Assembly: GCA_951406725.2 (NCBI GenBank)
Contig: OX597839.1
Coordinates: 4,154,001-4,218,000 of the forward strand
DNA: 64,000 nt
Direction of reading: 5' to 3'
Origin: Octopus vulgaris
Lineage: Eukaryota
The position numbers were made by a program, and so were the translations under genes. Positions 4,475-29,699 of this stretch are shown here, piece by piece. How positions within the stretch are numbered: position 1 is the stretch's first letter; each line of letters begins with the position of its first letter. The notes beneath the pieces were generated by a model. That model was given only the letters and a program-made list of their open reading frames with translations. It had not been told where the DNA came from and searched no databases.

Positions 4475-4810
4475 GAAGGTGCATGGCTCAGTGGTTAGAG
4501 CGTCGAGCTTACGATCGTGAGGTTGTGAGTTCGAATTCCGGACCGGGTTGCGTGTTGTGTTCTTGAGCAAGACACTTTATTTCACATTGCTCCAGTTCAC
4601 TCAGCTGTAGAAATGAGTTGCGACATCACAGGTGCCAAGCTGTATCGGCCCCTTTGCCTTCCCCTTGGATAACACTGGTGGCATAGAGAGGGGAGGCCAG
4701 TATACATGGGTGGCTGCTGGTCTTCCATAAACAACCTTGCCTGGACTTGTGCCTGGGAGGGTAACTTTCTAGGTGCAATCCCATGGTCAGTCATGACCGA
4801 AGGGGGTTTT
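4475..4810 (+). mobile_element. tRNA-headed SINE with CORE-like body
   Basis: TGGCTCAGTGGTTAGAGC / GAGTTCGAATTCC followed by GTTGTGTTCTTGAGCAAGACACTTTA. Confidence 0.75.
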
Positions 4811-5288
4811 AATATATGATGCGTGGACACCAGGGAAAAGAAGGGTTGAAATTAACAGAAGCCAACAAATGAATGTGTGAGTGTGGGATAGAATATACTC
4901 AATTAGAATCACACCCCTCAGTAGATTACATCTTTATTTCATCAACACTGCTAAAGTCAACCTGAACAGGTTTCAAACTCAAAAGTTAAAGAAGTCCTAA
5001 TTTAATACCACAAGGCATTTTGTCCACTGCTCCAAACAATTCTACCAACACACCATTCTTCATAAATATAAATTAAATGATAATTAACAGTTTATAATTA
5101 TTCCTCATTGTTTTTCTCCATTTTTATCAGTTCTAGATTCTGAAGATGAAATGGAAATCCACATGTCAGATATTTTGCCACATGGTACCAGCTTTGGTTC
5201 GTTATAAAAGAAACCTGCTACTGTCCTAAATAGATTTTGGTGGTGGAAACCGGTTTACTCTGGAACTGTGTGGAATGGTGCTGGTGTT

Positions 5289-5389
5289 TTATGGCACTTG
5301 CCATTTCTGGAAGAAGTCATTCCCTTTGTTGTCAACGACGATGAAAGCAGGAAAATTTTCTACTTCAACTTTCCAGATAGCTTCCATGC
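5289..5389 (-). CDS. fumA: class I fumarase terminal exon 12 ([32 protein letters not shown])
   Basis: cctatcag acceptor, TAA stop at 5291-5289. Confidence 0.96.
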
Positions 5390-5870
5390 CTGATAGGAGT
5401 AGATGTGACGAGGAAGAGAGAAATACAGATAGTTTTAGAGTTGCAAAAACAGATATTTAAAGGTGAGTGAGAGAGAGAGAGAGGGAGAGAGGGAGGGAGA
5501 GAGAAATATAGATATTTTTAGAGTCACAAAACAGATATTTAAAGGTGAGTGAGTGAGTGAGGAGTGAGGGAGGAGTGAGTGAGTGAGTGAGTGAGTGAGG
5601 GAGTGAGGAGTGAGTGAGTGAGGAGTGAGTGAGTGAGTGAGAGTGAGTGAGTGAGTGAGTGAGTGAGTGAGTGAGTGAGGAGTGAGTGAGGAGTGAGTGA
5701 GTGAGGAGTGAGTGAGTGAGTGAGGAGTGAGTGAGTGAGGAGTGAGTGAGTGAGGAGTGAGTGAGTGAGGAGTGAGTGAGTGAGTGAGTGAGTGAGGAGT
5801 GAGTGAGAGTGAGTGAGAGTGAGTGAGGAGTGAGGGAGGAGTGAGTGAGAGAGAGAGAGAGTGAGTGAGT

Positions 5871-5911
<41 letters not shown>

Positions 5912-8900
5912 TGTGATTGTGTGTGCATGCTTGAATGTAAGGGATACTGTATGTCTTTTAGGTGTCTGGGAGAGAGAGAGAGAGAGAGAGAAAAAGAGAA
6001 AAGAGAGATATTTAGTTTATTTACAGCAGGTATGAGTGACAATATGTGTGAGAGAAGAGAAAGATTCAGTTATTAAGAGGGAGAGAGAAAGACCGTGAGA
6101 AAAAGTTTGTGTCTAAGCGATAAATACTCTGTAGTGAGTACGTATGATAGCATATGACTGTATGCACGTGCGTGAGAGAGAGAGAGAGTCACATGGATGC
6201 AAACACACCAAGACCAGTTGTCAAGCAGTGGTGGTAGGGGACAAACACAGACACTACACACACACACACATATATATATATACACAATGGGCTTCTTTCA
6301 GTTTCTGTTTACCTAAACCACTTATAAGGCTTTGGTCAACCTGAGGCTATAGTAGAAAGCACTTGCCCAAGGTACCACGCTGTGGGACTGAACACCTAGA
6401 ACCATGTGGTTGGGGGAAAAAAAAAAGCTTCTTTCTACACTTCTACACAGCCATACTTGTGCCTAATATATATAAAAAGCACCCGCTACACTCATGGAGT
6501 GGTTGGTGTAAGGAAGGGCATCCAGCCGTAGAAACATTGCCATATCAAACTGGGCCTGGTGCAGCCTTCTGGCTTCCCAGACCCCAGTTGAACTGTCCAA
6601 CCCATGCTAGCATGGAAAGCGAACACTAAACGATGATGATATATATATATATATATATAAAGGGAAAGTTTACGAAAATAAACAAAAGACGAAGGCAGGT
6701 GGAGTACAAACAAACAAATGTATTAGTATAGTGCTCAGGAATAGAAAAAGTCTTTTATGTTTCGAGCCTACGCTCTTCGACAGAAAGATACACAGAAAAA
6801 AAACAAGGAGAGAAAAAAATGCATGTAGGAGCTAACGATCTATGATGGCTTCCGTTGCCTGAGCAACCAACTGGCTCCGTGCCAGTGGCACGTAAAAGAC
6901 ACCATGCGAGCATGATCGTTACCAACATCGCCTTACTGGCACCTGTGCTGGTGGCATGTGTAATAAGATTCGAGCGAGGTCATTGCCAGTACCGCCTGAC
7001 TGGCCCCGTGCCGGTGGCACATAAAAAGCACCCACTACACTCACGGGTCAAGATTGGAGCCTGGTGTGGCTGTCTGGTTTGCCAGCCCTCAGTCAAACTC
7101 GTCCAACCCATGCTAGCATGGAAAACGGACGTTAAACGATAATGATGATGATGATGATATATATATCATCATCATCATCATTATCGTTTAACGTCCGTTT
7201 TCCATGCTAGCATGGGTTGGACGGTTCGACCGGGGTCTTGGAATCCAAGAGGCTGCACCAGGCTCCAGGCTGATCTGGCAGAGTTTCTACAGCTGGATGC
7301 CCTTCCTAATGGCAACCACTCCGTGAGTGTAGTGGGTGCTTTTTACGTGCCTCTGGCATCTGTGCCAGAGGAGGGCTGGCAACAGCCACGATTGGTTGTT
7401 GCTTTTTATGTGCCACCGGCACAGAAACCAGTCAAGGAGGCACTGGCATTGGCCACGTACGGATGGTGCTTTTTACGTACCACCGGCACATGTGCCAGGG
7501 TAGGCTGGCAACACCCACGAACGGTTGGTGCTTTTTACGTGCCACCGGCACGGAAGCCAGTCAAGGATATAATGGGCTTCTTTCATTTTCTACCAACCAA
7601 ATTCACTCAGGAAGCTTTGATCAGCCTGGGGCTAACGTAGAAGGTATTTGACCAAAGTGCCATGCAGTGGGACTGAACTAGGACCTATGTGGTTGGGAAG
7701 CAAACGTAAAACCACACAGCCATGCCTGTACTAACTTAATTGGACAGACATACAGGTGAGCAGAGTGACAAACAACTGGGGATGAAAGGATGGGGAGGGG
7801 ATGAAAAATGTGAGACAGACTGATAGACACACAGACAAAAAATAGAGGTGGAACAAGGTGGAAGAAGAAAGAGAGGAATGATGTTGGAAAGTGGTGGGAA
7901 CAGACCAGCTGGACTTACCTAATTCTGGGTATTCTAAAACTTCAACCTTCTTGATACAGTTCTCAGCCAAGATGGCAGCTGGTCCTCCAATGGAACCAAG
8001 GTAGAAGCCACCATGTTGTTTACAGGATCTGGTTACCTGACAGGTGAGAAGAAAAAGGAAGAAGTTAAAATGATAGTGGGGAGCGATGTGAAAGGGTGAC
8101 AGAGAGCGAGAGTATTGTTATAAATAAAGAGGGAGGGGTTGATGTGGGGGTGGTAATGAGATAGCTTGAGACAGCTACCTGAGAAAGAGATGACAGTGAT
8201 GGAGAGGAATGATATAAGAGATAGAGAGAGGGAGCATCATTACATATGAAGAGAGGGGAGTTAATGTGGGTGGAGCAGTGACATGGTCATCTGACAGGAA
8301 GAGGAGAGAGAGATTGAGAGAGTATCATTACATATGAAGAGAGGGGAGTTAATGTGGGTGGAGCAGTGACATGGTCATCTGACAGGAGGAGGAGAGAGAG
8401 ATTGAGAGAGTATCATTACATATGAAGAGAGGGAAGTTAATGTGGGTGGAGCAGTGACATGGTCATCTGACAGGAGGAGGAGAGAGAGATTGAGAGAGTA
8501 TCATTACATATGAAGAGAGGGAAGTTAATGTGGGAGGAGCAGTGACATGGTCATCTGACAGGAGGAGGAGAGAGAGATTGAGAGAGTATCATTACATATG
8601 AAGAGAGGGAAGTTAATGTGGGTGGAGCAGTGACATGGTCATCTGACAGGAGGAGGAGAGAGAGATTGAGAGAGTATCATTACATATGAAGAGAGGGAAG
8701 TTAATGTGGGAGGAGCAGTGACATGGTCATCTGACAGGAGGAGGAGAGAGAGATTGAGATAATATCATTACATATGAAGAGAGGGAAGTTAATGTGGGTG
8801 GAGCAGTGACATGGTCATCTGACAGGAGGAGGAGAGAGAGATTGAGAGAGTATCATTACATATGAAGAGAGGGAAGTTAATGTGGGAGGAGCAGTGACAT

Positions 8901-11222
8901 GGTCATCTGACAGGAGGAGGAGAGAGAGATTGAGAGAATATCATTACATATGAAGAGAGGGAAGTTAATGTGGGTGGAGCAGTGACATGGTCATCTGACA
9001 AGAGGAGGAGAGAGAGATAGAGAGAGTATCATTACATATGAAGAGAGGGAAGTTAATGTGGGTGGAGCAGTGACATGGTCATCTGACAGGAGGAGGAGAG
9101 AGAGATTGAGAGAGTATCATTACATATGAAGAGAGGGAAGTTAATGTGGGAGGAGCAGTGACATGGTCATCTGACAGGAGGAGGAGAGAGAGATAGAGAG
9201 AATATCATTACATATGAAGAGAGGGGAGCTAATGTGGGTGGAGCAGTGACATAGTCATCTGACAGGAGGAGGAGAGAGAGATAGAGAGAATATCATTACA
9301 TATGAAGAGAGGGAAGTTAATGTGGGTGGAGCAGTGATATGGTCATCTGACAGGAGGATGAGAGAGAGATAGAGAGAGTATCATTACATATGAAGAGAGG
9401 GAAGTTAATGTGGGTGGAGCAGTGACATGGTCATCTGACAGGAGGAGGAGAGAGAGATAGAGAGAGTATCATTATACATAAAGAGAGAGAGGGATGGAGG
9501 TTGATAGGGGCAGGGCAATAAGATGTTCACCTGAGAGGAGGGAAGGAGGAAGAGAGTGATAGGGATGAATGATATAAAAGAGTGATTGAGTGAGAGAGAG
9601 AGAGAGAGAGAGAGAATCACCGCATATAAGAATATAATACAACATATACAAAAGTATATATATTCACCAAATTATACACACACATGCATACAGACAAATA
9701 CACATGCACATATACACACATGGACTGACCTGTCTGCTTCTGTTTCCTTTAGCTAACATCACCATACTTCCGCCATGTGACTGTAACATATCGACATAGG
9801 AATCCATACGTCCAGCAGTTGTAGGGCCGAAAGATCCACTGGCGTAACCCTGATGAGACAATGTACAATACATGTGTACAGAATTTACAACAAATACAAA
9901 ACAAACAAGTTCATCATCATCATCATCGTCATCATCATTGCTGCCACCACTACAAGCACCAGCACTGTCAATATCCATTTTTCCTCTAAGGTGGCGAGCT
10001 GGCAGAAACATTAGCATGCCGGGCGAAATGCATAGCCATATTTCGCCTGCCGTTACGTTCTGAGTTCAAATTCTGCCGAGGTCGACTTTGCCTTTCATCC
10101 TTTCGGGGTCGATTAAATAAATACCTATTTCTTTACTACCCACAAGGGGCTAAACACAGAGGGGACAAACAAGGACAGACAAACGGATTAAGTCGATTAC
10201 ATCGACCACAGTGCGTAACTGGTACTTAATTTATCAACCCCGAAAGGATGAAAGGCAAAGTCGATCTTGTCGGAATTTGAACTCAGAACGTAACGGCAGA
10301 CGAAATACCACTAAGCATTTTGCCCGGCATGCTAACGTTTCTGCCAGCTTGCCGCCTTCGATTAAATAAATACCAGTTATGCACTGGGGTTGATATAATA
10401 CACTTAATCCGCTTGTCTGTCCTTGTTTGTCCTCTCTGTGTTTAGCCCCTTGTGGGTAGTAAAGAAATAGAAATAGGTATTTCGTTTGTCTTTACGTTCT
10501 GAGTTCAAATTCTGCCAAGGTTGACTTTGCCTTTCATCCTTTTGCGGTTGATAACTTAAGTACCAGATGCATACTAGGGTCGATCTAATCAACTGACCCC
10601 CACTACCCCAAAATTTTCGGCTTTGTGCCTAGAGTAGAAAAGAACATCCCTTTTCCCATGCTTACTTGGGATGGATTTTATTGAGGTATACAATTTCCTA
10701 TGAGGCGGATGTTCTTCCTATAATCAAATTTTACCTGTTTCTAAGCAAGGTAATATTTTCTTGTAGTCAAGCATGTTTTTGCAGAATACTGGAAATGAAT
10801 GACACTATAATAAACATTTATATCTATCACATAATGTCAAGACAAGGAAGCATATACATACACATACTTATATGCAGACATATATGTATATGTACTTATA
10901 TATAAGTACATACACATATACGTTTCAACCGTGTTTTACTGACGTGAATTTGCTACTCAGGTATCGATTAACCGAATTATCCATACTAGGATAATTCATT
11001 CACCTACTTAAATATATATATATGCATATTTATATTTTTTTATATTTATATATTTTTCTCTCCTTGTTTTTTCTGTGTCCCTTTCTGTAGAAGAGCGTAG
11101 GCTCGAAACGTAAAATACTTTTTCTATTCCTGAGCGTTATACTAATACATCTGTTTGTTTTGTACACCACCTGTGTTCGTCTTTTGATTTTTTCGTAAAC
11201 TCTCCCTATATATATATATATG

Positions 11223-11256
<34 letters not shown>

Positions 11257-11339
11257 TATATATCATCATCATCATCATCGTTTAACGTCTGTTCTCCATG
11301 CTAGCATGGGTATATATATATGCATATATATATATGCAT

Positions 11340-11377
<38 letters not shown>

Positions 11378-13291
11378 GCATACATATATATATATATGCA
11401 AACTTAAAAAAGCATATTGCTGAAAGTCTTGGTTATATGTTATTGCCTCCATGAGGCCCAACACTAGAAAGGTGCTTTTTATGTGCCACTGACATGGGTA
11501 GCCAGTTGCATGACAACAATTTCACTTGGCTCCATGGGACTTCTATTCAAGCATGGCATAATGCCAGAAAGAAAACAAAAAAAAAAAAGCAAAGGGAAAA
11601 AAAAAAAAAGAAGGGGTTCAAAAAGGTGTGTTTTTTTTACCTCAGGGGTTTTGGCAGGTCCTGCATAATAGACAGGATGGTCTCTCATATACTGGGGGAG
11701 GCCTTCACCATTGTCAATTCTCTCCTTTAACTTGGCATGAGCAATATCTCTGGCAACAATCAGCGTTCCGCTGAGAGACAGTCGAGTCTTAATAGGGTAA
11801 GAATCCAGGATTGTAAGCATATCCTTCATTGGTTGGTTCATGTCAATCTAATTAAGAAAAATTAAAACTATTAGAACTAATTGGTGTTTTTTTTTTAATA
11901 AAATGTGAAAAACAGAAAAAAATCAGAACTAAATTGATAATATATAGGCGCAGGAGTGGCTATGTGGTAAGTAGTGTGCTTACCAACCACATGGTTCCGG
12001 GTTCAATCCCACTGCGTGGCACCTTGGGCAAGTGTCTTCTATTATAGCCTTGGGCTGACCAAAACCTTGTGAGTGGATTTGGTAGATGGAAACTGAAAGA
12101 AGCCCGTCGTATATATATATATATATATATGGATATATATAAGTATATATATAAGGCGAGCTGGCAGAATGCTTAGCGGTATTTCGTCTGCCGTTACGCT
12201 CTGGGTTCAAATTCTGCTGACGTCGACTTTGCCTTTCATCCTTTCGGGGTCGATAAATTAAGTACCAGTTACGCACTGGTACTTAATTTATCGACCCCGA
12301 AAGGATGAAAGGCAAAGTCGACCTCGGCGGAATTTGAACTCAGAACGTAGCGGCAGACAAAATACCGCTAAGCATTCCGCCCAGCATGCTAACATTTCTG
12401 CCAGCTCGCTGCCTTCACCCATAGTATTCAACAACAAAGTGAAGTAACAGAAAACAAAAACATACAAACATACACACATCGTCGTCACCACCACCACCGC
12501 TACCAGCATCATCAAACATCTGTTTTTCCATGCTGTCATGAGTTGGACAGTTTAACCAAAGCTGGTAAGCTGGAGAGCTACACTAGATTCCAGTCTGATT
12601 TCACTTGGTTTCTATGGTTGGATGCCCTTCCTTAAACACCAACCACTTTACAGTGTGTGCTTGGTGCATTTAACAAGGTACCAACACATCCTCTTCACCA
12701 GGAGAAGTGGCCCGAACACTTCTGCTATGGAGGACGGGTCTTCTTGAGTAAAGCCAGGGGCTATCTTGGTCCTTTGTCATCTTGTCTGAAAGTTTCATAC
12801 ATACAAAGACAAACACACATATAACTCACCTGTACTACATCTCCGCCCAAATCTAAATCAGTGATCTCAGGTAGGTATTTGTGTGGGTTGGTTTCCAGTT
12901 GTTCTAGAAAGATTCCATCTTCATTGATCCGTGCATTAACCTTGGAAACAATCGAAATAGATAAATGAATAAATAAACACACAAATTTTAGTAAATTCTT
13001 TCAGTTAATTATTCAGTTAATTAATTAATTAATCAACAAGAAGCAGACATCAAAGAGCCCTAGAACAAAGAGACAATATTTTCAAAGATGGTTAAAAATA
13101 GCTTAATATCTTTCATCATTCAACTGTTTCAGTCATTAGATTGTGGCCATGCTGGGGCACTGTCTTGAAGAACTTTTAGTTGAATGAATGGACTCCAGTA
13201 CTTGATTTTTAAGTTTGGTACTTAGGTACTTGTTCTAGTGTTCTCTTTTGCTGAATCGGTTGTCAAGCAGTGGGGAGTGACAAACATAGAT

Positions 13292-13325
<34 letters not shown>

Positions 13326-13564
13326 GTAGATTAATCAGCCGAAATTGCGAAGATGATCCGGTTCTTGACTGATGACTGAGGGCTTCGAAAGTCCCGTTCG
13401 TGTTTTTTGTGTCGTCTTCTAAATGTTTCACGTTCTTGTCCCAGTTTGTATATTTTTTTAACTTTTACATATATATATATATATATATTACCAGGTGGTG
13501 CTATTAAGTTAGACATGGCCTGGGCCAATAATGGCCGAAACCTATCAAAGTATCAAAGTATATA

Positions 13565-13601
<37 letters not shown>

Positions 13602-14388
13602 CATTATCGGCGTTAGGAAGGGCATCCAGCTGTAGAAACTCTGCCAAATCAAGACTGGAGTCTGGTGCAGCCATCTGGTTCACCAGCCCTCAGTCAAAAT
13701 CGTCCAACCCATGCTAGCATGGAAAGTGGACGTTAAACGATGATGATGATGATGATTATGATGATATATGATGGGCTTTCAGTTTCTGTGAATGAAATCC
13801 ACTCACAAGGCTTTAGTTGGCGCAAGGCTGTTGTAGAAGTCACCTGCCCAAGGTGCTGCACAGTGGGACCGAACCTGGATCCATGTGGTTGGGAAGCAAG
13901 CTTCTTACCACACTGCTACACCTGTTGACATTTTTTTTAAATACTTTATTTTAGGATGGGATATTGGGTTTTGCTTTCCTTTTATGCAAACAGGCAAATT
14001 TAGCTCAAACACCCTGAACATACAAAAACACACGTGTGTGTAAAATATTGGATGAAAAAGTTTTCGGGGTGCAAAGATGTAAATGCAAAAAAAGGAAAAT
14101 AATAATCTTCTTACTTGTCTGTCAGCAGAACAAGAAACACCGATGCCTACGGGGCAGGAAGCTCCGTGACGGGGTAACCGAATAACCCTCACGTCATGAC
14201 AGAAGTACTTGCCGCCAAACTGTGCCCCAATACCCATCTGTTGCGTTAACTTGTGCAGTTCTTTCTCTAGTTCAACATCACGAAATGCACGGCCAAATTC
14301 ATTACCTGCAGAAGAAAAAGATGAGATAATAATAATAACAATAATAATAATAATAATAATAATGATAATAATAATAATGATAATAATG

Positions 14389-14427
<39 letters not shown>

Positions 14428-17400
14428 TTAATAATGATAATAATAATAATAATAATTAATAGTTATCGCCATACTAATATGGCAGTCTTATAAATATAAG
14501 AATAAAGACTGCCATATTAGTATGGCGATAACTATTAATTTCCAGTAACGCTGCCGTAATCTCCTTTAGAGAGATTTAGTAATTTTAATATTTCTATTAA
14601 TAATAATAATAATAATAAATGCCCTGATGCAGTACCAGGCAGTGGCTCTCATGGCTTCTGGTCTTAACTGATTGGAAATGTTATCATGTAAATTGTTTTG
14701 TCTTGGTATAAAAAGATGGGCTACAGCAAATATTCTGCTCAATACCACAGATTTGCTTGTCAGTTGTTTGACCGTAACCAGTTGAGCATGTCCCTTAGTG
14801 GCTGACGATATGTGCATCTCTGATCCCGAGCAGAAGTAGTGGGGGAGCATCATAGCCATGTGTTGAGAGGGATTCTTTGAGGTTTGAATAATTCACCTTT
14901 GGAAACATGGGTGTTTTATTCAACATCCTTAAACAACTTTTATTCAAGGACCTTTTGAGCAGGATGGGTTACTCGACCAGAAGAAAATTCTAACTGGGCC
15001 CCACCTGCAAGGTCATGTGTTGTTTATCTTGATATGAGATCACCATGTCGTGCACATAAGGTTGCGATGCATGTGCCTGGTGTACTCTTATCAGACGGGT
15101 AGTCATGATGGGTATACTGGGCTTCGTATATTTTACCCCAGTGTCACTTTGATGGCATGCACTGCTCTCTCACTCAATAATAATAATCATAAATACCAGG
15201 CAGTGGCTCTCATTCTGACTGGAAGTTAAGATGATGATGATGATGATGATGACAATGAGAGATAATGATGATGAGAGATGATGATGATGAGAGAAGTGAT
15301 GATGAGAGATGATGATAAGTGATGATGATAAAGATGATGATGATGATGAGAGATGATGATGAGAAGTAATGATGATAGAGATGATGATGATGAGAGAAGT
15401 GATGATGAGAGATAATGATAAGTGATGATGATAAAAATGATGATGATGAGAGAGGTGATAATGATGAGAGAGGTGATAATGATGAGAGAGGTGATAATGA
15501 TGAGAGAGATGACGATGATAATCGTCACTATCATTGTCATTTTCACCATAATTATCATAGTGATGGCACTGATGGTGGTTATGATGATGACAATCATCTT
15601 GATGATGATTATGATAATGATGATGACAATGATAATGGCGATGATCATCATCACTATGATAGTGATAGATAGCAATTATGATCATGCTAATGATCTTGAT
15701 GATGAGGATGACAGTGATGATCATCATTGTCATCATATGATGGCAGTAGTGATGATGATGAAGGGGAGGATATTGATGATGAGGATGACGACAACAACGC
15801 AGTCAATGACAACAATGATGAAGGTCTTGATTATGATAAAAATGAGCGTGATCGTTACTAGCATCGCCTTACTGGCACCTGTGCCGTTGGCATGTGTAAA
15901 AAGATTCGAGCGAGGTCGTTGCCAGTACTGCCTGACTGGCCCCCATGCTGGTGGCACGTAAAAGCACTCACTACACTCTCGGAGTGGTTAGCATTAGGAA
16001 GGGCATCCAGCTGTAGAAACTCTGCCAGATCAGACTGGAGCCTGGGGCAGCCATCTGGTTCGCCAGCCCTCAGTCAAACCGTCCAACCCATGCTAGCATG
16101 GAAAGCGGACATTAAACGATGATGATGATGATGATGCTGTGGATGATGATGGTTATGATAATGATGATGATAACACTGTTCATGACAATGATGATGATGA
16201 TGCTGATTGTAATGGTCACAAAAGAAGGCATCCGGAGTACTAACCTGATGTATGTAGTGTATCTAAATACCGACAAGATGCCAGCTTCACTGTCTTCAGA
16301 TTATACTCGGCAGATGTCCCACCAATGACAATAGCTAAATGGTAAGGAGGGCAGGCAGCAGTGCCAAGGGTCTTTGAAAAATAAAAATAGACACTATAAA
16401 AATATTACAAAAAAGGATAAAACCAACAGGAATGTCTTAAAGATATCGCAACATCTGGTTAAAGATAAGTCATAGTGTCAATGTGTTAATCCTGTAGCAT
16501 TTAAGCCGACCATATCTGGCCATATTATCCTGCCTGTTTTATCATCAAACCAGTGAGATCTGACTGCTCACATCTTCCCTACAATATGGTTCTAAAAATA
16601 AACAATCACATTGTTGAAATCTTGAGGCCTTGAAATTATAAGTGATTAATTAAAAATGATGTGAATAAATAATTATTACAACTGACAGGTTTTGATCTGA
16701 ATGCTAAAGGCTTAAACTAGCCATATTCAGCGCAAATATTCTACATGCTTTATGTACAGACTGGCCATATCCAACCTCACACACTAACTCTACAATGTTA
16801 ATCTTTGCGTCCCTTTGGTTTTTCTGTGTGTGTGTGTGTGTGTGCACAAGTTTGCTCAATGCATACCAACACTAGTTGTCAAGCAATGGTGGGCACATAT
16901 GCACAAACACAGTTTACATTTGCCACATTCACTCACAAGCTATTGGTCACCCTGGAGCTAAACCAGAAGACAATCGCCCAAGGTGCCACACAGTGGGACT
17001 GAACCTAGAACCATGTGGTTGGGAAGCAAATTTCTTGATACACAGCCATGTCCACACCAACAATAACTACCATCATCATCCCCAAAGTCCATCCTCTCCT
17101 CACCGTAGTGGGGACGCTGGCAATGGGTAGTGTCAGAGCTATGCCGTCGGGAACTTCGGTTCCTGGTAGGGCCACCCAAGGCAGATTGGTCTGACACCGA
17201 GTGGTATTGGGGCTACAACCTGGCAGACGGGGCTCTGGTGAAAATCCTCGGAGTGTCTGTTTCAGCAACCGGCGGCTCCTCGGTCGTCCTGTCCCTGCGT
17301 CTGCGGACAATCTGCAGGAAACAGGATGTCTGTACATGCGGGATTGTTGGGGACCGCTTGTGAAATCCACATATTCCCACGAAACTTCTTCTATGAATTC

Positions 17401-20400
17401 TCAATGGTGAATACAATGGTGAATTTTCGAGATGCCTCGAGGGTGGTGGAAGAAGCCGACTCAACTGCCCAGGGTGAATGTCGCCACAAGTACAAGTAAG
17501 TAATCTAAAAATTAACAAGGACATCATCAAAATCTCAAAGCCACAAGGTTAATGCATGATTATTCAAAACAATGTGAATAGATAAGCATTACATTTGATG
17601 GAGAAATCTGAATGATAAAGGGTTAAACCAGTCATATCCATTATTATCATTCAGGTCATTGCCTGGAATCGAACTCGGAATCTTGGGTCCAGTAGCCCAT
17701 GCTCTTAACCACTATGCCATATGCCTGTGGTCATATCCAGCCCAAAATATTCAATCTGTTATGTCTCTATTAAATAATATTCATCTCTCACTAGATGGAG
17801 TACTTTTTTTGTTCATCTTACCATCACAGAACAGTACATTATACACACACACACAAACACACGACAGGTTTCTTTGGATTCTGCTAAATGTTATTTAGTT
17901 AGTTAATTTTTTGGCTCAAAAAGCAAAAAGCAAGGCCATGTAGGGGAACATGGAGTTATGTACAGGGTGGTGTTCATGTAAAGAGTTCAGGCCACTTGTG
18001 GTCAAGGGAGACTTTGAACCGAGCGGTCGTCGGCATCTTCACCATCTCATCTGGCAGCTTATTCCACAGATCCGCAACCCAGACGGAAAAAGCCCCTCTC
18101 CTTCGATTAAGATGAAATCGTTGCAGATAGAGCTTTTCGGAATGACCCCGCAGCCGACGCTCTGGAGCAGGAGTGAAGAACAGCTCTTTCGAGAGGTTAT
18201 ACTTTCCGCTTATGATGTTGTGAGTAAGAATGGGATCACCACGTCGTCGTCGTTTTTCTAGAGAATAAAGGTCGAGCGTCTTCAGCCTTTCTTCATAAGA
18301 CAAATTCTTGAGACCAAGAATATTTCATAAACAAAATCTTGAGCTAAACAAAACATAGTAAGATAACAAATTTTACCTTAATCTTTTCGTCAAAGAATTG
18401 GAGAAGTTTTTCAGGATTAAGGAGGGCTTTGGTTTGTTGGAAAAGAAATGTCTTGTTGGCAGAACCACCACCTTTGGCTAAGAAGAGAAAGTCATAATGA
18501 TTGCTGTTGGTGGAATAGATTTCAATCTGAGCAGGTAGGTTGGTACCAGTGTTGACCTCTTTGTACATATCTAATGGCGCCACCTGGAAGTATACAAAGA
18601 AATAATAACAACAATGATAATGATAATAATAATACTCCTTTCAACTATAGGTTCGAGGGCTGAAGTTTTGGGCAGGAATGTAGTCAATTACATAACTTTC
18701 AACCTTGGCAGAATTTGAACTCAGAATGTAAAGACAGATGAAATGCCACTAAGCACCCACACTCTCTCTTTTACTTGTTTCAGTCATTTGACTGCGGCCA
18801 TGCTGGAGCACCGCCTTTAGTCGAGCAAATCGACCCCGGGACTTATTCTTTGTAAGCCCAGTACTTATTCTCTTTTGCCGAACCGCTAAGTGACGGGGAC
18901 GTAAACACACAAGCATCGGTTGTCAAGCAATGCTAAGGGGACAAACACAGACACACAAACATACACACACACACACACACACACATATACATATATATGA
19001 CAGGCTTCTTTCAGTTTCCATCTACCAAATGCACTCACAAGGCTTTGGTTGGCCCGAGGCTATAGCAGAAGACATTTGCCCAAGATGCCACGCAGTTGGA
19101 CTGAACCCGGAACCATGTGGTTGGTAAGCAAGCTACTTACCACACAGCCACTCCTGCGCCTACTAATAAAAACATTTACACAAAAGGGCTTACCTGCGAA
19201 TATCGTAGATTGTTCCGTGTGAAAGCATTGTAGATTCCTTGAGACAGTGCTACATCATCTGGTTCCCCAGTTGTCCACACATATTGTCCTTTCTTGCCTA
19301 AATAGGAGAAGCAAAAAATAAAAAAATAAAAAATAAGGAAAACATGCAGATGTAGCTATGTGGTAAGAAGCTAGCTTCCCAACCACATGGTTCCAGGTTG
19401 TATCATCATCATCATCATCATTTAACATCCGTTTTCCGTGCTAGCATGGGTTGGACGGTTCAACTGGGGTCTGGGAAGCCAGGAGGCTGCACCAGGCTCC
19501 AGTCTGATCTGGCAGTGTTTCTACCAGCTGGATGCCCTTCCTAATGCCAACCACTCCGTGAGTGTCGTGGGTGCTTTTTACATGCCACCGGCACAGGTGC
19601 CAGGGGAGTCTGGCAGCGGCCACGATCGGTTGGTGCTTTTTACGTGCCACCAGCACAGAAGCCAGTCAAGGCGGCGCTGGCATTGGCCATGTTCGGTTGA
19701 TGCTTTTTACGTGCCACCAGCACAGAAGCCAGTTAAGGCGGCGCTGGCATCGGCCACGTTCGGTTGGTGCTTTTTACGTGCCACCAGCACAGAAGCCAGT
19801 CAAGGCGGGGCTGGCATCGGCCACGTTCGGTTGGTGCTTTTTAAGTGCCACCAGCACAGAAACCAGTCAAGGCGGCGCTGGCATCGGCCACGATTCGGAT
19901 AGTGCTTTTTACGTACCATGTTGTATGTGTGTATGAATGGTAAAAAGCTTGCTTTCCAACCACATGGCTCTGGGTTCAGTCCCACTGTGTGGCACATTAA
20001 GGAAGTGTCTTCTACTATAGCCTCGGTGGAGGCACGTGGCCTAGTGGTTAGAGCAGCGGACTCGTGGTCGAGGGATCACGGGTTCGAATCTCAGACCGGT
20101 CGATGTGTGTGTTTATGAGCGAAAACACCTAAGCTCCATGTGGCTCCGGCAGAAGGTAATGGCGAAACTTCTGCTGACTCTTTCGCCACAACTTTCTCTC
20201 ACTCTTTCCTCCTGCATCTTGCAGCTCACCTCCGATGGACCGGCGTCCCGTCCAGGTGGGGAACCTATACGCCAAGAAACCGGGAAACCGGCCCTTATGA
20301 GCCAGGCATGGCTTGAGAAGGAACAAACAAACAAAAAAAACTATAGCCTCAGGTTGACCAAAACCTTGGGAGTGGATTTGGTGGATGGAAACTGAAAAAT

Positions 20401-23400
20401 GCCCATCGTGTTGGTGTGAGTCTTTGAGCCTGTATTTGTTGACCCCTCACCACCGCCACTTGACAACTGTTGTTGTTGGTGTGTTTATGTTCTTGCAACT
20501 TATATCGTTTCAGCAAAATAAAATATCAGCGTTAATGACTTGCAGGCACATAGTGTTTCGTTATGTAACTACAAAATAGGGACAAGTGAGACCATAACCT
20601 GGTAGCCAGCCCACTTAAGCATACCTGTCCTTCTTGGGACACAAAACTCAGCTTGCGAAGACCAGTTGAGGCAAGTGAAATTGAAATCACTCAAAAATCA
20701 ATGGAAATTGTAGTTGTGATACCAGTGCCGGTGGCATGTAAAAGAACCATCCGAACGTGGCCGTTGCCAGTGCCACCCCGACTGGCCTCCATGCCGGTGG
20801 CACGTAAAAAGCACCAACCAATCGTGGCCATTGCCAGCCACGCCTGGCACCTGTGCCGGTGGCACGTAAAAAGCACCCACTACACACACAGAAATCAATG
20901 GAAATTGTAGTTGTGATACCAGTGCCGGTGGCATGTAAAAGAACCATCCGAACGTGGCCATTGCCAGTGCCACCCTGACTGGCCTCCATGCCGGTGGCAC
21001 GTAAAAAGCACCAACCGATCGTGGCCGTTGCCAGCCACGCCTGGCACCTGTGTCGGTGGCACGTAAAATGCACCCACTACACTCATGGAGTGGTTGGCGT
21101 TAGGAAGGGATTCCAGCTGTAGAAACACTGCCAGATCAGACTGGAGCCTGGTGCAGCCTCCTGGCTTCCCAGACCCCAGTCGAACCGTCCAACCCATGCT
21201 AGCATGGAAAGCGGATGTTAAACGATGATGATGATGATGATAAGTCAATACTATGTTCTCCTGTGTTAGCAGTGCTTTTTTACATCACATGTTAAGGTCA
21301 TCTTTACAGATTTTCTATAGAAATGAAAGCCAGCACTCATTTGTTATGACATTTCGTACTCGAGATGTCAGATGTAAACAAACAATGAGATCGATGATGA
21401 AAAATGGGTCACGAGTGTATATGCTCTATTTCAGGAGTTCTTGCTCCCTCATCAGCACCCATCCAACCCCTTAATCATCCACGAACTCATTACTTAAATG
21501 ACCACTAAATGTAGCAGTGTAACACTATTGGACATACTAGTTTTACATATCAAACACATTCCTTGAAGCTGGTATGTAAATATTCGTGATTTGTAGGGAT
21601 GCGGTATTTTGTTGCCGGTGGCACATAAGAGAACTATCCGAACGTGGCCGTTGCCAGCGCCACCCCGACTGGCCTCTGTGCCGGTGGCACGTAAAACGCA
21701 CCATTCGATCGTGGCCATTTGCCAGCCTCGTCTGGCACGTAAAAAGCACCCACTACACTCACGGAGTGGTTGGCGTTAGGAAGGGCATCCAGCCATAGAA
21801 ACATTGCCAGATCATACTGGGCCTGGTGCAGCCTTCTGGCTTCCCAGACCCCAGTTGAACCGTCCAACCCATGCCAGCATGGAAAGTGGATGCTAAACGA
21901 TGATGATGATGATGATGAACCATTATGAACTACAAAGCATATTAAATGTTTTTATTTGTAAACTAGATGACCCAGTGCTGTCAAAAATGATGGCTAATTG
22001 TAGTATTTTATATATAAATATTGAGTCAAGTACATCAACATCAAAATAAATATCAAATGGAAATTGTAGTTGTGATACCTGTGCCGGTGGCACATAAAAA
22101 GCACCATCCGAATGTGGCCGATGCCAGCGCCGCCTTGACTGGCTTCTGTGCCAGTGGCATGTAAAAAGCACCATCCGAACGTGGCCGATGCCAGCACCAC
22201 CTTGACTGGCTTCTGTGCCAGTGGCATGTAAAAAGCACCATCCGAACATGGCCGATGCCAGCGCTGCCTTGACTGGCTTCTGTGCCAGTGGCACGTAAAA
22301 AGCACCATCCAAACGTGGCTGATGCCAGCACCACCTTGACTGGCTTCTGTGCTGGTGGCACGTAAAAAGCACCAACCTATCTCTATAACTGGACTGCTAA
22401 GTTATGGAGCTGTAAGCATACCAACAGCAGTTATCAGGTAGTGATGGGAGACAAATGCAGACAGAAAGATACACAGTGGGCTTCTTTCAGTTTCCGTCTA
22501 CCAAATCCACTCACAAGGCTTTGGTTGGCCAGAGGCTATCGTAGGAGACACTTGCCCAAGGCTGCCATGCAATGGGACTGAACCTGGAGCCATGTGATTA
22601 GAAAGCAAACTTCTTACCATGCAGCCATGCTTCCACCTACACACATATTCATATAGGGAAGGGCATCCAGCCATAGAAACCATGCCACAACAAACTGATG
22701 GAACCTGGACAGGTCCCTGCTAGTGGTTGGCATTAGGAAGGGCATCCAGCCATAGAAACCATGCCACAACAAACTGATGGAGTCTGAACAGGTCCCTGCT
22801 AGTGGTTGGCATTAGGAAGGGCATCCAGCCATAGAAATCATGCCACAACAAACTGATGGAGTCTGGACAGGTCCCTGCTAGCCAGCTCCATGCCAAACTG
22901 TCTAACCCATGCCAGCATGGAAAGCGGATGTTAGATGACATTGATGATATATGATGCATCTCATATTGGTACTTACCCATACAGATAGCCGTTCCTGTAT
23001 CCTGACAGCCTGGCAGTACCATGTTGGCAGCAATGTTGGCATTCTTTAGCAACTCCAGGGCTACAAATTTGTCATTTTTTGAAGCTTCTGGATCCCTGAG
23101 AATATTTGATAATTGCTGAAAAATTAGATAAAAAGAGACCAATAAATACCGGATCTTTTTGGTTTGAAAAGGCAGTTTTTAACATAATTTCTAGGTAACT
23201 AAAAAATTTTAAACTTCATATATTGGTAGAATGTGTTTATAAAACATCTTTTTATCTGGGCTTTATTGAGAAAATTCTATAGTTTGTAAGATATTTATTG
23301 TTTTATCTTTTCTTCAATTTCTGCAATTTCAACCAATCGATGACGTCCAATGAGGTAAAAAGCATTCTGTGCCGTATGAATATGTCCCTCGTTTAAGAAA

Positions 23401-24480
23401 CAGATTGGGTTTATCTACATTTGTGAAGAAGAAGAAGAAGAAGAAGAAGAAGAAGAAGAAGAAGAAGAAGAAGAAGAAGAAGAAGAAGAAGAAGAAGAAG
23501 AAGAAGAAGAAGAAGAAGAAGAAGAAGAAGAAGAAGAAGAAGAAGAAGAAGAAGAAGAAGAAGAAGAAGAAGAAGAAGAAGATTTTGATTGTGTGGACCC
23601 CAAAAAGCTGATAAGGACCCTGGTTGAGAACTATTACAGCAGAAAAAAAAAAAAAGAACAATAGACTGTAAAAATAGTTACCTGTAGATGACCTGGCCTC
23701 AGTAAGTGTTCAATGTCCACGATGGCCCTCTCTGCCAAAAGAGTCAGTGCTTCTGAATCAATTTGCAGTACCTTCTTACCGTTGACGTTGACTGTTTCTA
23801 CATAATCACCTGTACAGGTGAGAGTGGAAAAAAAACATTAGGAATATAATGACCTGGTCACGGCATACCAGCATGTCTAGTTAAAAAAAGAAGCTATGTC
23901 CAACTACTTTGGACAAATTACTCAGAGTCTGAGAGTAAATAAAAAAATATTCAATCCATAAATGCCAGTCCAACAAAATATATATATGGTAGTTTCTGAT
24001 GAGCCCTACATGAAATAGAAAGTATAGTTTGTCTGACTAACAATTATGGTGTGGCTGTGTGGTAAGAAGTTTCCTTCTTAACCATTCTTCCTCACAACAG
24101 TCAACATGAAATGGACACACACATATGCGTGCGTGCGTACACGCATACATTCATGCATGCATCCATACATACGTGCACATATACATACTTCGTACATACA
24201 TATATACATGCATGCATACATACACACATACATACACGCACATATACATACTTCGTACATACATATACATACATACACACATACATACATGCATGCATAC
24301 ATGCACATATACATACTTCGTACATATATATATATACATATACATACATATATATACATGCATGCATGCATACATACAGACACACATACATACTCACACA
24401 CACATACATACACACACACACACACACACATACATACACACATACATACATACACACATACATATATACATGCATGCATG

Positions 24481-24511
<31 letters not shown>

Positions 24512-25929
24512 ATATGAGGATGTGCTGAAAAGTTTCTGAAAGACCTGATTGGAGGCCCAAGCTTCCAAATTGTTTTACAGGGTTTAGAAAATCTGAAGGG
24601 CCACTGCAATAAATGTGAGAATCTGAGAGGGGAATATGTTGAATAAAATCCTAATTAGCTGATCCTCCTGTATTCTCTTTTACCCAAAGCCAGGAACTTT
24701 GCAATATACCCTCGTATGTGTACATACCTATTTCTTTACTACCCACAAGGGCTAAATACAGAGGGGACAAACAAGGACAGACATAGGTATTAAGTCGATT
24801 ATATCGACCCCAGTGCGTAACTGGTTCTTAATTTATCGACCCCGAAAGGATGAAAGGCAAAGTCGACCTTGGCGGAATTTGAACTCGGAACGTAACGGCA
24901 GACGAAATACCGCTAAGCATTTCGCCCCGCGTGCTAACGTTTCTGCCAGCTTGCGCCTTCAAAATACCCTCGTATGTGTACATACCATCATCATCATTCA
25001 TTGTTTAATATCCGCTTTCCATGCTGGCATGGGCTGGACGGTTTCACTGAGGACTGGCAAGCCAGTAGGCTGTGCTAGGCTCCAATCTGATCTGGCAAGG
25101 TTTCTACAGCTGGATATCCTTCCTAATGCCAACCACTCCGAGAGTGTAGCAAGTGCTTTTTACGTGCCACCCGTATGAGGGCCATGCTTGAATGGTGCTT
25201 TTTACATTCCACCGGCACAGGAGCCAGTGAGGCAGCACTGGCAACAACCACACTTGAATGGTGTTTTTTTATGTGCCACCAGCACAGGAGCCAGTGAGGT
25301 GGCACTTGCATCAACCACGCTTGAATGGTACTCTTTACGTACCACTGGCATGGGTGCCAGTAAGGCAGTACTGGCATTGGCCACGACATTGATTTCATTT
25401 GACTCAACAGGTCTTCTCAAGCAGTTTATTGCCCAATGATTGAAGGGTACTCTTAAATGGGCCGGTTATGCTACACTAGCATAGGCCATGGTTACGGTCT
25501 CACTTGGCTTGCTTGGTCTTCTCATATCTCCAAAGGTCTTGTTTGCTTATCATCGCCTCCATGAGGCCCAACGTTCAAAGTTCGTGCTTCACCACCTCAT
25601 ACCAGGTCTGACCTAATGAGTTGGATAAAATAAACACTAGAGAAAGTACGGAGGTCAATAGAATAACTAAACCCCTCCTCGAAGATAGTGCTCCAGCATG
25701 GTTGCAGCCCAAGGAATGAAATTGGTAAAAGAAATACAAGAATAAAATGATACAAACCTGAAATTTTCTTCCATGGAACCTCTGGTTTTGCTTCGAAGTC
25801 CATTATGTCTTGGAAGATGAAGGGTTTTGTAGTGGCAGCTTTTGCCAATGTCCGTTCTAAGTGTAGGAAGTGGCGGGCGGCAACACATCTCCGGCCAAAG
25901 TGTGATAGCCATCGGGAACAGCACAACAT
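5289..25929 (-). CDS. fumA: Class I (Fe-S) fumarate hydratase, FumA/FumB-like, mitochondrial-type; 12 coding exons, 574 aa
   Basis: GT-AG exons 25929-25758, 23809-23682, 23115-22977, 19297-19194, 18583-18377, 16371-16245, 14305-14115, 12940-12830, 11847-11641, 9849-9730, 8036-7919, 5389-5289 are phase-compatible and sum to 1725 nt. Motifs [91 protein letters not shown] match E. coli FumA as I recall it. Confidence 0.97.
5545..5908. repeat. (GAGT)n/(GA)n compound microsatellite
   Basis: direct inspection. Confidence 0.95.
6661..6850 (-). mobile_element. ~190-bp dispersed repeat carrying a minimal hammerhead variant (Penelope pseudo-LTR-like)
   Basis: Similar copies at ~11050-11210 (+) and ~62046-62242 (-), each abutting (TA)n; fold UCUUU CUGUCGA a GAGC guag GCUC GAAA CAUA AAAGA at 6788-6751. 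Confidence 0.6.
7919..8036 (-). CDS. fumA: class I fumarase exon 11 ([40 protein letters not shown])
   Basis: cctgtcag acceptor, G|gtaagt donor. Confidence 0.96.
8236..9467. repeat. Minisatellite, 14 x 88 bp, in fumarase intron 10
   Basis: ATCATTACATATGAAGAGAGGGAAGTTAATGTGGG... recurs at 8236, 8324, 8412 ... with a 15th partial start at 9468. Confidence 0.97.
9730..9849 (-). CDS. fumA: class I fumarase exon 10 ([18 protein letters not shown]...LAKGNRSRQ)
   Basis: ctcatcag acceptor, CAG|gtcagt donor. Confidence 0.96.
11050..11210 (+). mobile_element. Second copy of the hammerhead-variant repeat
   Basis: CUUU CUGUAGA a GAGC guag GCUC GAAA CGUA AAA at 11081-11115; intact ACGU palindromic stem III. 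Confidence 0.6.
11641..11847 (-). CDS. fumA: class I fumarase exon 9 (IDMNQPMKD...[13 protein letters not shown]...[10 protein letters not shown])
   Basis: taattag acceptor, GAG|gtaaaa donor. Confidence 0.96.
12830..12940 (-). CDS. fumA: class I fumarase exon 8 ([25 protein letters not shown]...VVQ)
   Basis: tttccaag acceptor, CAG|gtgagt donor. Confidence 0.94.
14115..14305 (-). CDS. fumA: class I fumarase exon 7 (NEFGRAFRD...[38 protein letters not shown]), third Fe-S Cys
   Basis: ttctgcag acceptor, CAA|gtaaga donor. Confidence 0.97.
14454..14540. repeat. Perfect 36-bp inverted repeat with 15-nt spacer
   Basis: AATTAATAGTTATCGCCATACTAATATGGCAGTCTT ... AAGACTGCCATATTAGTATGGCGATAACTATTAATT. 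Confidence 0.95.
15230..15840. repeat. Degenerate (GAT)n low-complexity tract
   Basis: direct inspection. Confidence 0.9.
16245..16371 (-). CDS. fumA: class I fumarase exon 6 ([43 protein letters not shown]), second Fe-S Cys
   Basis: ttttcaaag acceptor, G|gttagt donor; absent from the ORF track. Confidence 0.96.
16814..17498. repeat. ~680-bp composite repeat, duplicated inverted at 31965-32628
   Basis: SINE fragment plus GC-rich segment, near-identical on the opposite strand at 31965-32628 (paired ORFs in the track). Confidence 0.9.
17905..18320 (-). mobile_element. CR1/L2-group LINE 3' fragment
   Basis: [22 protein letters not shown]...RLRGHSEKL...[13 protein letters not shown]...FKVSLD. 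Confidence 0.85.
18377..18583 (-). CDS. fumA: class I fumarase exon 5 ([20 protein letters not shown]...[12 protein letters not shown]...EKIK)
   Basis: cttccag acceptor, AAG|gtaaaa donor. Confidence 0.96.
19194..19297 (-). CDS. fumA: class I fumarase exon 4 ([34 protein letters not shown])
   Basis: tatttag acceptor, CAG|gtaagc donor. Confidence 0.95.
20026..20335 (+). mobile_element. tRNA-headed SINE (second copy 52690-52995)
   Basis: GGCCTAGTGGTTAG A-box, GGTTCGAATC B-box, body CCTGCGACGGACCGGCGTCCCGTCCAGG-like, (AAAC)n tail. Confidence 0.8.
20570..21241 (+). mobile_element. (GAT)n-tailed retroposon family C with internal GCCGGTGGCACGTAAAAAGCACC repeats
   Basis: Copies at 280-712, 1670-1930, 19403-19915(-), 21610-21918, 22020-22375, 25000-25610(-), 34822-35290(-), 41245-41510(-), 43960-44450; source of many spurious ORFs. 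Confidence 0.85.
21406..21469 (-). ncRNA. Type I hammerhead ribozyme, canonical core, in fumarase intron 3 (sense)
   Basis: Minus strand GGGUU-gg-AUGGGUG CUGAUGA GGGAG caagaa CUCCU GAA AUA gagca UAU A CACUCGU GACCC: all three stems pair; cleavage triplet AUA. Confidence 0.8.
22977..23115 (-). CDS. fumA: class I fumarase exon 3 ([12 protein letters not shown]...[14 protein letters not shown]), first Fe-S Cys
   Basis: tttttcag acceptor, G|gtaagt donor. Confidence 0.96.
23425..23582. repeat. Pure (GAA)n tract, ~52 units
   Basis: direct inspection. Confidence 0.97.
23682..23809 (-). CDS. fumA: class I fumarase exon 2 ([42 protein letters not shown])
   Basis: tacag acceptor, CAG|gtaact donor, phases 1/0. 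Confidence 0.93.
24515..24714. mobile_element. Decayed mariner-type MITE (related copy ~2575-2762)
   Basis: Ends TA-TGAGGATGTGCTGAAAAGTT ... AACTTTGCAATATACCCTCG-TA; the 2575-2762 copy shares internal sequence in reverse orientation. Confidence 0.55.
24729..24960 (-). mobile_element. SINE family B (AAGGCGGCGAGCTGGCAGAAACGTTAGC...), copy with long target-site duplication
   Basis: ATACCCTCGTATGTGTACATACC on both sides; B-box GAGTTCAAATTCC in the family. Clusters at 9988-10600, 12153-12415, 35498-36260, 38985-39340, 44735-45335, 47112-47337 (TSD TCTATCTGTGTACCT), 55022-55585. Confidence 0.85.
25758..25929 (-). CDS. fumA: class I fumarase coding exon 1 ([21 protein letters not shown]...PWKKISG), putative mitochondrial presequence
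   Basis: ATG directly follows tctttag acceptor; Arg-rich, acid-poor N-terminus; donor G|gtttgt, phase 1. Confidence 0.85.
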
Positions 25930-25949
25930 CTAAAGAGTGAGAAAGTGAG

Positions 25950-29575: not shown

Positions 29576-29699
29576 TACATATATAGGACGGGCTTCTTTC
29601 AGTTTCCATCTACCAAATCCACTCACAAGGCTTTGGTCGGCCCGAGGCTATAGTAGAAGATATATATATATATATAAAAAAGAAACACTTTCTTGAAAT

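Follow-up and report, generated by a model that had tools for sequence, protein, structure and literature searches.

The window analysed here, a stretch of 64,000 nucleotides from Octopus vulgaris, contains on the minus strand (25929-5289) a gene of 12 coding exons, all 11 introns of which conform to the GT-AG rule in the window sequence. The 1725-nt coding sequence is translated into 574 amino acids followed by a stop codon, free of internal stops and frameshifts, in full agreement with the preliminary description of this DNA, which had proposed 12 GT-AG exons spliced into a 574-residue reading frame. Nine of the 12 exons match Pfam families in the order of the models, with Fumerase (PF05681) located within exons 3-7 and Fumerase_C (PF05683) in exons 9-12. 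Coding exon 1 (25758..25929, aa 1-57; all exons are on the minus strand) carries the start codon and a predicted mitochondrial presequence (approximately aa 1-30). Exon 2 (23682..23809, aa 58-100) shows no fumarase Pfam match on its own, nor does exon 8 (12830..12940, aa 357-393; the last part of the N-terminal domain plus the linker) show any Pfam match alone, and both are identical to the respective parts of the O. vulgaris protein CAI9741182.1. The N-terminal domain includes exon 3 (22977..23115, aa 101-146; PF05681 E 4.6e-11), with C137 (23007-23005) and D139 in the GCQDTG motif; exon 4 (19194..19297, aa 147-181), which contains R178 and a one-residue octopod insertion and alone falls below the Pfam cut-off; exon 5 (18377..18583, aa 182-250), with a PF05681 match and the KGGGSAN motif (aa 218-224); exon 6 (16245..16371, aa 251-292), with a PF05681 match and the putative cluster ligand C257 (16353-16351); and exon 7 (14115..14305, aa 293-356; PF05681 E 3.7e-19; a single match genome-wide), with H339 and the putative cluster ligand C351 (14132-14130). 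The C-terminal domain is encoded in exon 9 (11641..11847, aa 394-462; PF05683 E 3e-21), with R426, exon 10 (9730..9849, aa 463-502; PF05683 E 2.6e-15), with T472, R476 and K496, exon 11 (7919..8036, aa 503-541; PF05683 E 4.3e-13) and exon 12 (5289..5389, aa 542-574 and the stop codon; PF05683 E 6.8e-11).

The start codon is immediately preceded by a pyrimidine tract and AG, so that an upstream untranslated exon is likely and the 12 exons may be the coding exons alone; such an exon was not located by eye within 29600-30050, and a 599-residue O. vulgaris isoform, which shares the start methionine, reveals no upstream exon. Downstream of the stop codon, a 3' UTR of approximately 510-550 nt (4780..5288, minus strand) would fit three transcript-like contigs in length and offset if the modelled exons are assumed, and candidate poly(A) signals are recognizable in the sequence of this strand near 4938 and 4813. 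The locus sits on a 41-Mb contig and adjoins an LSG1-type gene, an exon of which is found on the plus strand at 41418-42350. Dispersed repeats in common with 46 kb of sequence from two other contigs cover 14-77% of nine of the 11 introns, whereas introns 2 and 10 lack shared dispersed repeats and contain tandem repeats instead; the earlier statement that all eleven introns are full of SINEs is thus overstated, the shared repeats of the nine introns being at most putative SINEs. Splicing was checked for introns 4 and 5 of the 11, and in contigs from four out of four public runs of four studies (classed as RNA by guess) both are spliced out where predicted, with the exon 4-5 and exon 5-6 joints present in each. 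The depths of these contigs, from 17.6 to approximately 1300, do not allow a ranking of expression.

In the spliced protein, PF05681 precedes PF05683 on the same chain, which is the arrangement of the single-subunit class I type, and in a PF05681 profile search of the genome this locus is the sole match. The protein scores above the cut-offs of both TIGR00722 and TIGR00723 and, at 875 bits, below those of NF011919 (FumA equivalog, 1105) and NF011920 (subfamily, 1094), which were tuned on bacterial proteins. The putative cluster cysteines C137, C257 and C351 are present exactly as described earlier, with spacings of 119 and 93 residues, the former resulting from the octopod insertion in exon 4. 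Among 61 animal or presumed-animal sequences, the first spacing is 118 in 56, 119 in four and 123 in one, and all six bacterial records show 118 and 93; the E. coli cluster cysteines are given as C105, C224 and C318 in PMC13655608. When 15 positions were mapped from the Leishmania enzyme onto the 61 sequences, 14 proved invariant and one varied in a single sequence. In particular, octopus D139, R178, H339, R426, T472 and R476, which correspond to Leishmania D135, R173, H334, R421, T467 and R471, are invariant in 61 of 61 sequences, as is the segment K218-N224 at the positions compared. Five of these Leishmania positions are mutated in PDB entries (R173A, H334A, R421A, T467A and R471A), and D135 counts among the substrate-site residues as well. 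A single-sequence fold prediction reached a pLDDT of 34 and was set aside. The AlphaFold2 model (pLDDT 93) matched Leishmania fumarate hydratase (FH) in Foldseek with E 1e-88, TM 0.90 and rmsd 1.5 A, and a search of the ESM Atlas retrieved fumarate hydratase clusters exclusively. The Pfam matches, the cysteines, the substrate-site residues and the predicted fold all bear out the class I identity and the intactness given in the preliminary description, and we conclude that the locus encodes a class I [4Fe-4S] fumarate hydratase of putative activity.

Leishmania major FH (PDB 5L2R and 6UNZ, cytosolic; 6MSO, mitochondrial) is 59-62% identical to the octopus protein, superimposes on its predicted model with TM 0.90 and rmsd 1.5-2.0 A, and aligns with it at the three cysteines and the substrate-site residues. 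The octopus enzyme differs in that its first and second cysteines are one residue further apart and in the 11 introns of its gene, and it coexists with a class II fumarase, which kinetoplastids lack. E. coli FumA and FumB (approximately 63-66% identity) share the two-domain single chain and, in their records, the C-X118-C-X93-C pattern that the octopus protein follows except for its first X119, but they have no presequence and are located far outside the animal clade in the tree described below. The protein itself is already annotated: our translation shows no differences over 574 aa from CAI9741182.1, named "fumarate hydratase class I, aerobic-like" in the database, and seven differences over 574 aa from XP_029651698.1 of O. 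sinensis. Both are automatic annotations, and our literature search, with most subscription journals outside its coverage, found no experimental study of either and no biochemical study of any molluscan class I fumarase; searches for a cephalopod class I fumarase or cephalopod rhodoquinone, some of them loose and with the same coverage, likewise found no paper.

The first 35 residues of the octopus protein include seven R/K and one D/E, and the N-terminus extends approximately 30 residues beyond bacterial homologues, with the same start shared by the proteins of O. vulgaris, O. sinensis, O. bimaculoides and Argonauta. Basic, acid-poor N-termini are found in all 12 animal class I proteins examined, and the one bacterial control differs in this respect; the hydrophobic moment (0.56 for the octopus N-terminus vs. 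0.47 for the bacterial control) gives no separation. From the composition and the extension past bacterial homologues, we predict that this N-terminus is a mitochondrial presequence. An intact class II fumarase gene is present on contig C14 (G000:C14), and its presequence-like first exon ends in a second Met. The product of this gene, of the same class as FumC and vertebrate FH, catalyzes the same reaction as the class I enzyme and is similarly predicted to be mitochondrial, but it is unrelated in sequence and fold, iron-free and oxygen-stable. Given this separate class II gene, the class I gene represents a second fumarase, and the earlier proposal of a second mitochondrial fumarase is upheld at the level of a prediction, which draws on the presequence composition and on the class II copy.

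The rarity implied by the preliminary description did not withstand comparison, both because the protein was already annotated and because orthologues are present in at least ten animal phyla, with 70-80% identity across phyla. All 60 organism-named entries among the 120 matches listed are animals; these matches include bivalves, gastropods, annelids and flatworms, as well as echinoderms, hemichordates, amphioxus, Trichoplax and Priapulus, and none of those named comes from vertebrates, insects, nematodes, cnidarians or sponges. In a phylogenetic tree (LG+G4, bootstrap not settled), 24 of 24 sampled animal sequences, chosen by similarity to the octopus query, form one clade with 99/99 support, in which the cephalopods fall among spiralians; distant full-length sequences from a 50% representative search entered alignment A1 only. 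Hymenolepis, Paragonimus and other flatworms (approximately 70% identity) belong to the same animal clade as octopus. The single clade, combined with the spread over ten phyla, indicates an ancient animal gene, and these sequence comparisons suggest that it arose once, no later than the base of placozoans and bilaterians. As sister to the animals, the tree places Willaertia and two other sequences, with weak support (88/67), which leaves room for a transfer predating animal origin.

Taken together, we consider it probable (approximately 0.8) that the product of this spliced nuclear gene is a single-chain class I FH, predicted to be a second, mitochondrial fumarase, and that the gene dates back to the ancestor shared by placozoans and bilaterians. 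The enzyme would enter mitochondria via the predicted presequence and, as a [4Fe-4S] protein, would interconvert fumarate and L-malate there beside the iron-free class II enzyme. Single-subunit class I enzymes are typically homodimers whose [4Fe-4S] cluster is oxygen-labile. Its everyday job would most likely be ordinary TCA-cycle flux shared with class II, and it might have the side activities usual in class I enzymes, namely those on mesaconate and D-tartrate.

Mere redundancy with class II does not account for the 70-80% identity maintained between phyla, which makes an additional role possible. Tentatively, and with considerable doubt, the class I enzyme could be regarded as an ancestral animal mitochondrial protein, inherited once, that disappeared from vertebrates and other lineages and persisted elsewhere for a job inaccessible to class II, such as mesaconate/citramalate metabolism or oxidant-sensitive gating of the TCA cycle; anaerobic fumarate respiration would not be that job, given that octopus apparently lost the rhodoquinone coq-2 exon (see below) and yet keeps class I. 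Unlikely is the explanation that the enzyme is retained for a substrate which class II cannot use, either for the conversion of mesaconate to (S)-citramalate or for the repair of a dicarboxylate by-product, with fumarate secondary. Octopus class II, with its presequence, already covers the TCA step, and the strong conservation of class I suggests a non-redundant job. We know of no diagnostic residue that separates mesaconases (FumD, Burkholderia), which handle mesaconate about as efficiently as fumarate or better, from fumarases. According to PMC4682846, the mesaconate efficiency of E. coli FumA and FumB amounts to 4% and 19%, respectively, of that with fumarate, FumC has none, and mesaconate is the preferred substrate of certain class I enzymes; the active-site positions of the octopus protein, however, are the same as in Leishmania fumarase.

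Quite improbable for octopus is retention mainly for hypoxia, in which the enzyme would make fumarate from malate and a rhodoquinone-dependent step would reduce it (malate dismutation). Such a role was proposed for the trematode enzyme in the Fasciola genome paper, which links flatworm class I enzymes (Fasciola, Hymenolepis, Echinococcus) to malate dismutation (PMC5257007); bivalves, gastropods, annelids and flatworms, all with class I genes among the matches listed, are reported rhodoquinone makers in the coq-2 paper, and E. coli uses class I enzymes at low oxygen, as stated in PMC4682846. In octopus coq-2, however, a single ubiquinone-type exon (a-form) of 134 nt is intact, its Phe and Ala lying 39 residues from each other. 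A decayed duplicate directly upstream of it has the Leu-type start together with frameshifts and stop codons, and its donor site reads GA instead of GT. At the DNA level, this duplicate scores 97, whereas the best of 762 control windows reaches 50 and 0 of 1000 shuffles score as high; scanning the coq-2 introns at the protein level gave no significant signal, with 57 of 200 shuffles equalling the score. No other intact coq-2 copy was found in the genome; a weak match on contig C22 was rejected as an e-form gene, being a short stray a-form fragment. An intact e-form exon (Leu204, Ser243), which characterizes rhodoquinone-dependent malate dismutation, is thus not among the coq-2 exons detected, and the rhodoquinone-type exon appears to have decayed in the octopus genome, an apparent loss that sets octopus apart from flatworms. 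Furthermore, C. elegans employs FUM-1, a class II fumarase, at the malate-to-fumarate step. Fumarate reduction is possible with ubiquinol too. Echinoderms, hemichordates, amphioxus, Trichoplax and Priapulus keep class I as well, and the coq-2 paper omits them among rhodoquinone makers. The decayed exon and the retention of class I in phyla without known rhodoquinone weaken the tie to hypoxic malate-to-fumarate flux made in the preliminary description; a hypoxia role may apply in flatworms and bivalves.

Horizontal transfer from a bacterium into cephalopods or molluscs, with introns gained later, is highly improbable: the closest named bacterial protein, from Zavarzinia (Alphaproteobacteria), is 74% identical to the octopus protein, and PMC13655608 favours several class I transfers into eukaryotes, but the single animal clade with cephalopods nested in spiralians speaks against such an event, and a constraint of three cephalopods with Zavarzinia, the one donor considered, is rejected (p-AU 0.0028). 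Of the two origins suggested earlier, ancient retention is accordingly favoured over transfer into molluscs, and a lineage-specific transfer is rejected for this donor. The idea that the locus is a bacterial contaminant, an assembly error or a pseudogene has nothing in its favour except the bacterial look of the family and is refuted, as the earlier exclusion of contamination had it, by the 11 canonical introns, nine of them with host repeats, the 41-Mb contig with its neighbouring LSG1-type gene, the spliced contigs, the uninterrupted reading frame and the orthologues in three other octopods (92-99% identity), and the locus is a nuclear host gene.

This gene is an ordinary one for a marine invertebrate and has been annotated before. 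Its limited significance lies in the disagreement between published accounts: class I enzymes were said to be fully abandoned by aerobic eukaryotes (PMC6831887), were called "Platyhelminthes-specific" and a possible selective drug target in PMC5257007, a label contradicted by the present sample of animal phyla, and were found in 81 of 1,277 animal proteomes in a 2026 survey, the main text of which leaves the groups unnamed (PMC13655608). The decayed coq-2 exon makes a comparison of octopus with bivalves a direct test of the hypoxia idea. If the single origin is true, much of the animal kingdom would possess a pair of unrelated fumarases in its mitochondria, of which one would be oxidant-sensitive.

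The octopus gene encodes a class I [4Fe-4S] fumarase, as the preliminary description proposed. Its motifs lie on the minus strand in a six-frame translation of the window, and 12 exons with candidate boundaries from 25929 to 5289 splice into a 1725-nt coding sequence for 574 amino acids with zero internal stops; all 11 introns (566-3679 nt) are GT-AG. The spliced product is identical to CAI9741182.1 (Octopus vulgaris, 'fumarate hydratase class I, aerobic-like') and differs at 7 positions from XP_029651698.1 of O. sinensis; the gene is intact as described. In an exon-by-exon scan, nine of the 12 exons match PF05681 or PF05683 with the model order kept, and exons 1, 2 and 8, each scanned alone, match neither. 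The protein exceeds both the TIGR00722 and TIGR00723 cut-offs and falls under those of the narrow bacterial FumA models. A transcript-derived class I protein from a congener, 94% identical to the octopus product without gaps, can be aligned along its length with Leishmania major FH (E 2e-229), and a structure model of the octopus protein built on 103 sequences (pLDDT 93) superimposes on Leishmania FH structures with TM 0.90 and rmsd 1.5 A. Across 61/61 animal or presumed-animal rows, 15 positions transferred from the Leishmania chain, including the three cysteines, D135 and five residues of PDB mutant titles, are invariant, bar one Thr-to-Ser in one row; the octopus protein shares with Leishmania FH both the cysteines and the mutant-title residues. 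The cysteines C137, C257 and C351 are spaced by 119 and then 93 residues; the first spacing is 118 in 56 of the 61 rows, and 119 reflects a one-residue loop insertion present in octopod rows.

Splicing was compared over 16230-19400, where contigs from 4/4 runs of four studies, taken as RNA by guess, lack the 2005 and 610 bases of introns 5 and 4, with junctions where the model predicts them. Because the class I locus is the sole match in a genome search, an intronless copy is an unlikely source of these contigs. The statement that all eleven introns are full of host SINEs is overstated: 9/11 share dispersed repeats with a 46-kb sample drawn from two other contigs, introns 2 and 10 share none, and neither does any of the 12 exons. 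Since a pyrimidine tract and an acceptor-like AG directly precede the ATG (25930-25960) and two contigs extend past it by ~34 and ~52 bases (by arithmetic, assuming the modelled exons), an untranslated upstream exon is likely; inspection of 29600-30050 by eye did not locate it. A 599-aa database isoform of the same gene, CAI9741181.1, shares this start Met, which places its 25 additional residues internally or at the C-terminus.

Several other elements are found in the window. Most of intron 10 is a minisatellite (8217-9487; 14.4 copies of an 88-bp unit, 96% identity), and intron 2 contains a perfect (GAA) run of 52.7 copies (23425-23582). A dispersed repeat family with a variable number of internal 67-bp tandem units occurs at 7335-7560, 19610-19918, 20688-21082, 22079-22374 and 25187-25376, and two similar copies of a repeat richer in G+C, with overlapping open reading frames, lie at 17080-17500 and 31960-32440. 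The translations of fragments at 17944-18324, 60268-60672 and 61391-61849 seem to resemble the ends of LINE-type retroelement proteins. An LSG1-type large subunit GTPase gene (29972-57182, plus strand), one exon of which matches human and yeast LSG1 chains, lies head to head with the class I gene; its first coding exon (29972-30061) is ~4 kb from the class I ATG, and a shared promoter is possible. One of its exons, near 41700-42284, is long and acidic.

Half of the best 120 homologues listed (60) come with an organism name; every one of these is an animal, and together they cover Mollusca, Annelida, Nemertea, Platyhelminthes, Rotifera, Priapulida, Echinodermata, Hemichordata, Chordata (amphioxus) and Placozoa. 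Bacterial relatives were drawn from one search, with a usable frame in 79/80 loci, and from other searches. In a FastTree analysis of 147 rows, the 51 animal and presumed-animal rows form one clade (96). In IQ-TREE (LG+G4; 59 of these rows, hand-picked for spread and run time; bootstrap not settled), 24/24 animal rows again form one clade (99/99), with spiralians grouped within it (98/93); a weakly supported sister group (88/67) unites Willaertia with two unnamed rows whose N-termini look like presequences, Alphaproteobacteria, Myxococcota and others form an unresolved fan around the animals, and E. coli is placed far away. Grouping three cephalopods with their best named bacterial match is rejected (p-AU 0.0028, for a group chosen after the tree was known and one donor). 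Given the single animal clade and this rejection, the gene likely dates to the placozoan-bilaterian ancestor. Of the suggested ancient retention or old transfer, an ancient gene is favoured over a cephalopod acquisition from that donor; in a sample with few protists, its earlier source may have been the mitochondrial endosymbiont or an early transfer.

The separate class II fumarase that the preliminary description advised searching for is encoded on another contig (C14:55408980-55463817), where it was found with TIGR00979. Its database product (754 bits against a cut-off of 665) maps to nine exons, the first of which encodes 35 residues of presequence character with a second Met at its end, an arrangement from which both a mitochondrial and a cytosolic enzyme can arise, as happens in human and rat (PMC13655608). 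The first intron is 34 kb long; database isoform X1 has a helix-turn-helix, transposase-like exon in place of the presequence exon, and a scallop entry contains a similar fusion. The class I N-terminus is basic and acid-poor, like those of 12/12 animal class I proteins examined. Given these two features, the class I enzyme is predicted, as previously suggested, to join class II in mitochondria as a second fumarase and not to replace it. By homology, it would be imported by its predicted presequence, receive its cluster in the matrix, hydrate fumarate reversibly, and lose and regain the cluster under oxidants. In such clusters three irons are cysteine-bound and one open iron binds the substrate (10.1101/158956; PMC6831887).

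The proposed tie to hypoxic malate-to-fumarate flux, in its rhodoquinone-based form, would have the enzyme kept for malate dismutation. Animal rhodoquinone synthesis requires the e-form of a mutually exclusive coq-2 exon pair, with Leu204 and Ser243 diagnostic (PMC7434440); according to supplement rows of files that lack Octopus, the e-exon precedes a 134-nt a-exon in Biomphalaria and Capitella. In octopus coq-2 (contig C3), Phe and Ala occupy the diagnostic positions of an intact 134-nt exon, and ~1.8 kb upstream (C3:133343110-133343230) lies a decayed duplicate, judged against the a-exon, whose DNA alignment scores 97, where 762 control windows reach at most 50 and 0/1000 shuffles score as high; a protein-level scan for it was not significant. 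The duplicate reads Thr-Leu-Asn where the a-exon has Thr-Phe-Asn, has Thr, matching neither form, at the second diagnostic position, and carries frameshifts, stops and GA replacing the donor GT. No further intact copy of the exon was found in the genome; an isolated short fragment that duplicates the a-exon's first half, with acceptor context and a deletion, lies away from the gene (C22:34718850-34718930). The duplicate is likely a dead e-exon, and the rhodoquinone-type splice form has likely been lost in octopus. The coexistence of an intact class I gene with a dead e-exon, and the presence of the gene in deuterostomes and Trichoplax, argue against rhodoquinone-linked dismutation as the cause of its retention. 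Fumarate reduction with ubiquinol is another possible route. The nematode malate-to-fumarate step is assigned to FUM-1 (PMC8659336). Hydration of mesaconate, which E. coli class I enzymes perform and FumC does not (PMC4682846), would by analogy be the most plausible non-redundant class I job in animals.

Class I genes are reported in multicellular eukaryotes, mostly alongside class II (10.1101/158956), and the Fasciola enzyme has been termed Platyhelminthes-specific (PMC5257007). A survey found class I in 81/1,277 animal and 0/1,494 fungal proteomes, favoured several transfers and noted clustering with Alphaproteobacteria; its main text mentions neither molluscs nor Octopus (PMC13655608). In our literature search, which covered few subscription journals, neither biochemical work on a class I fumarase from molluscs nor any account of coq-2 exons in cephalopods turned up. 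Because the octopus gene is already annotated and the family is widespread in invertebrates, its novelty is low; the points of note are the one origin in animals to which the tree points, why two predicted mitochondrial fumarases are kept, and the decayed duplicate in coq-2.
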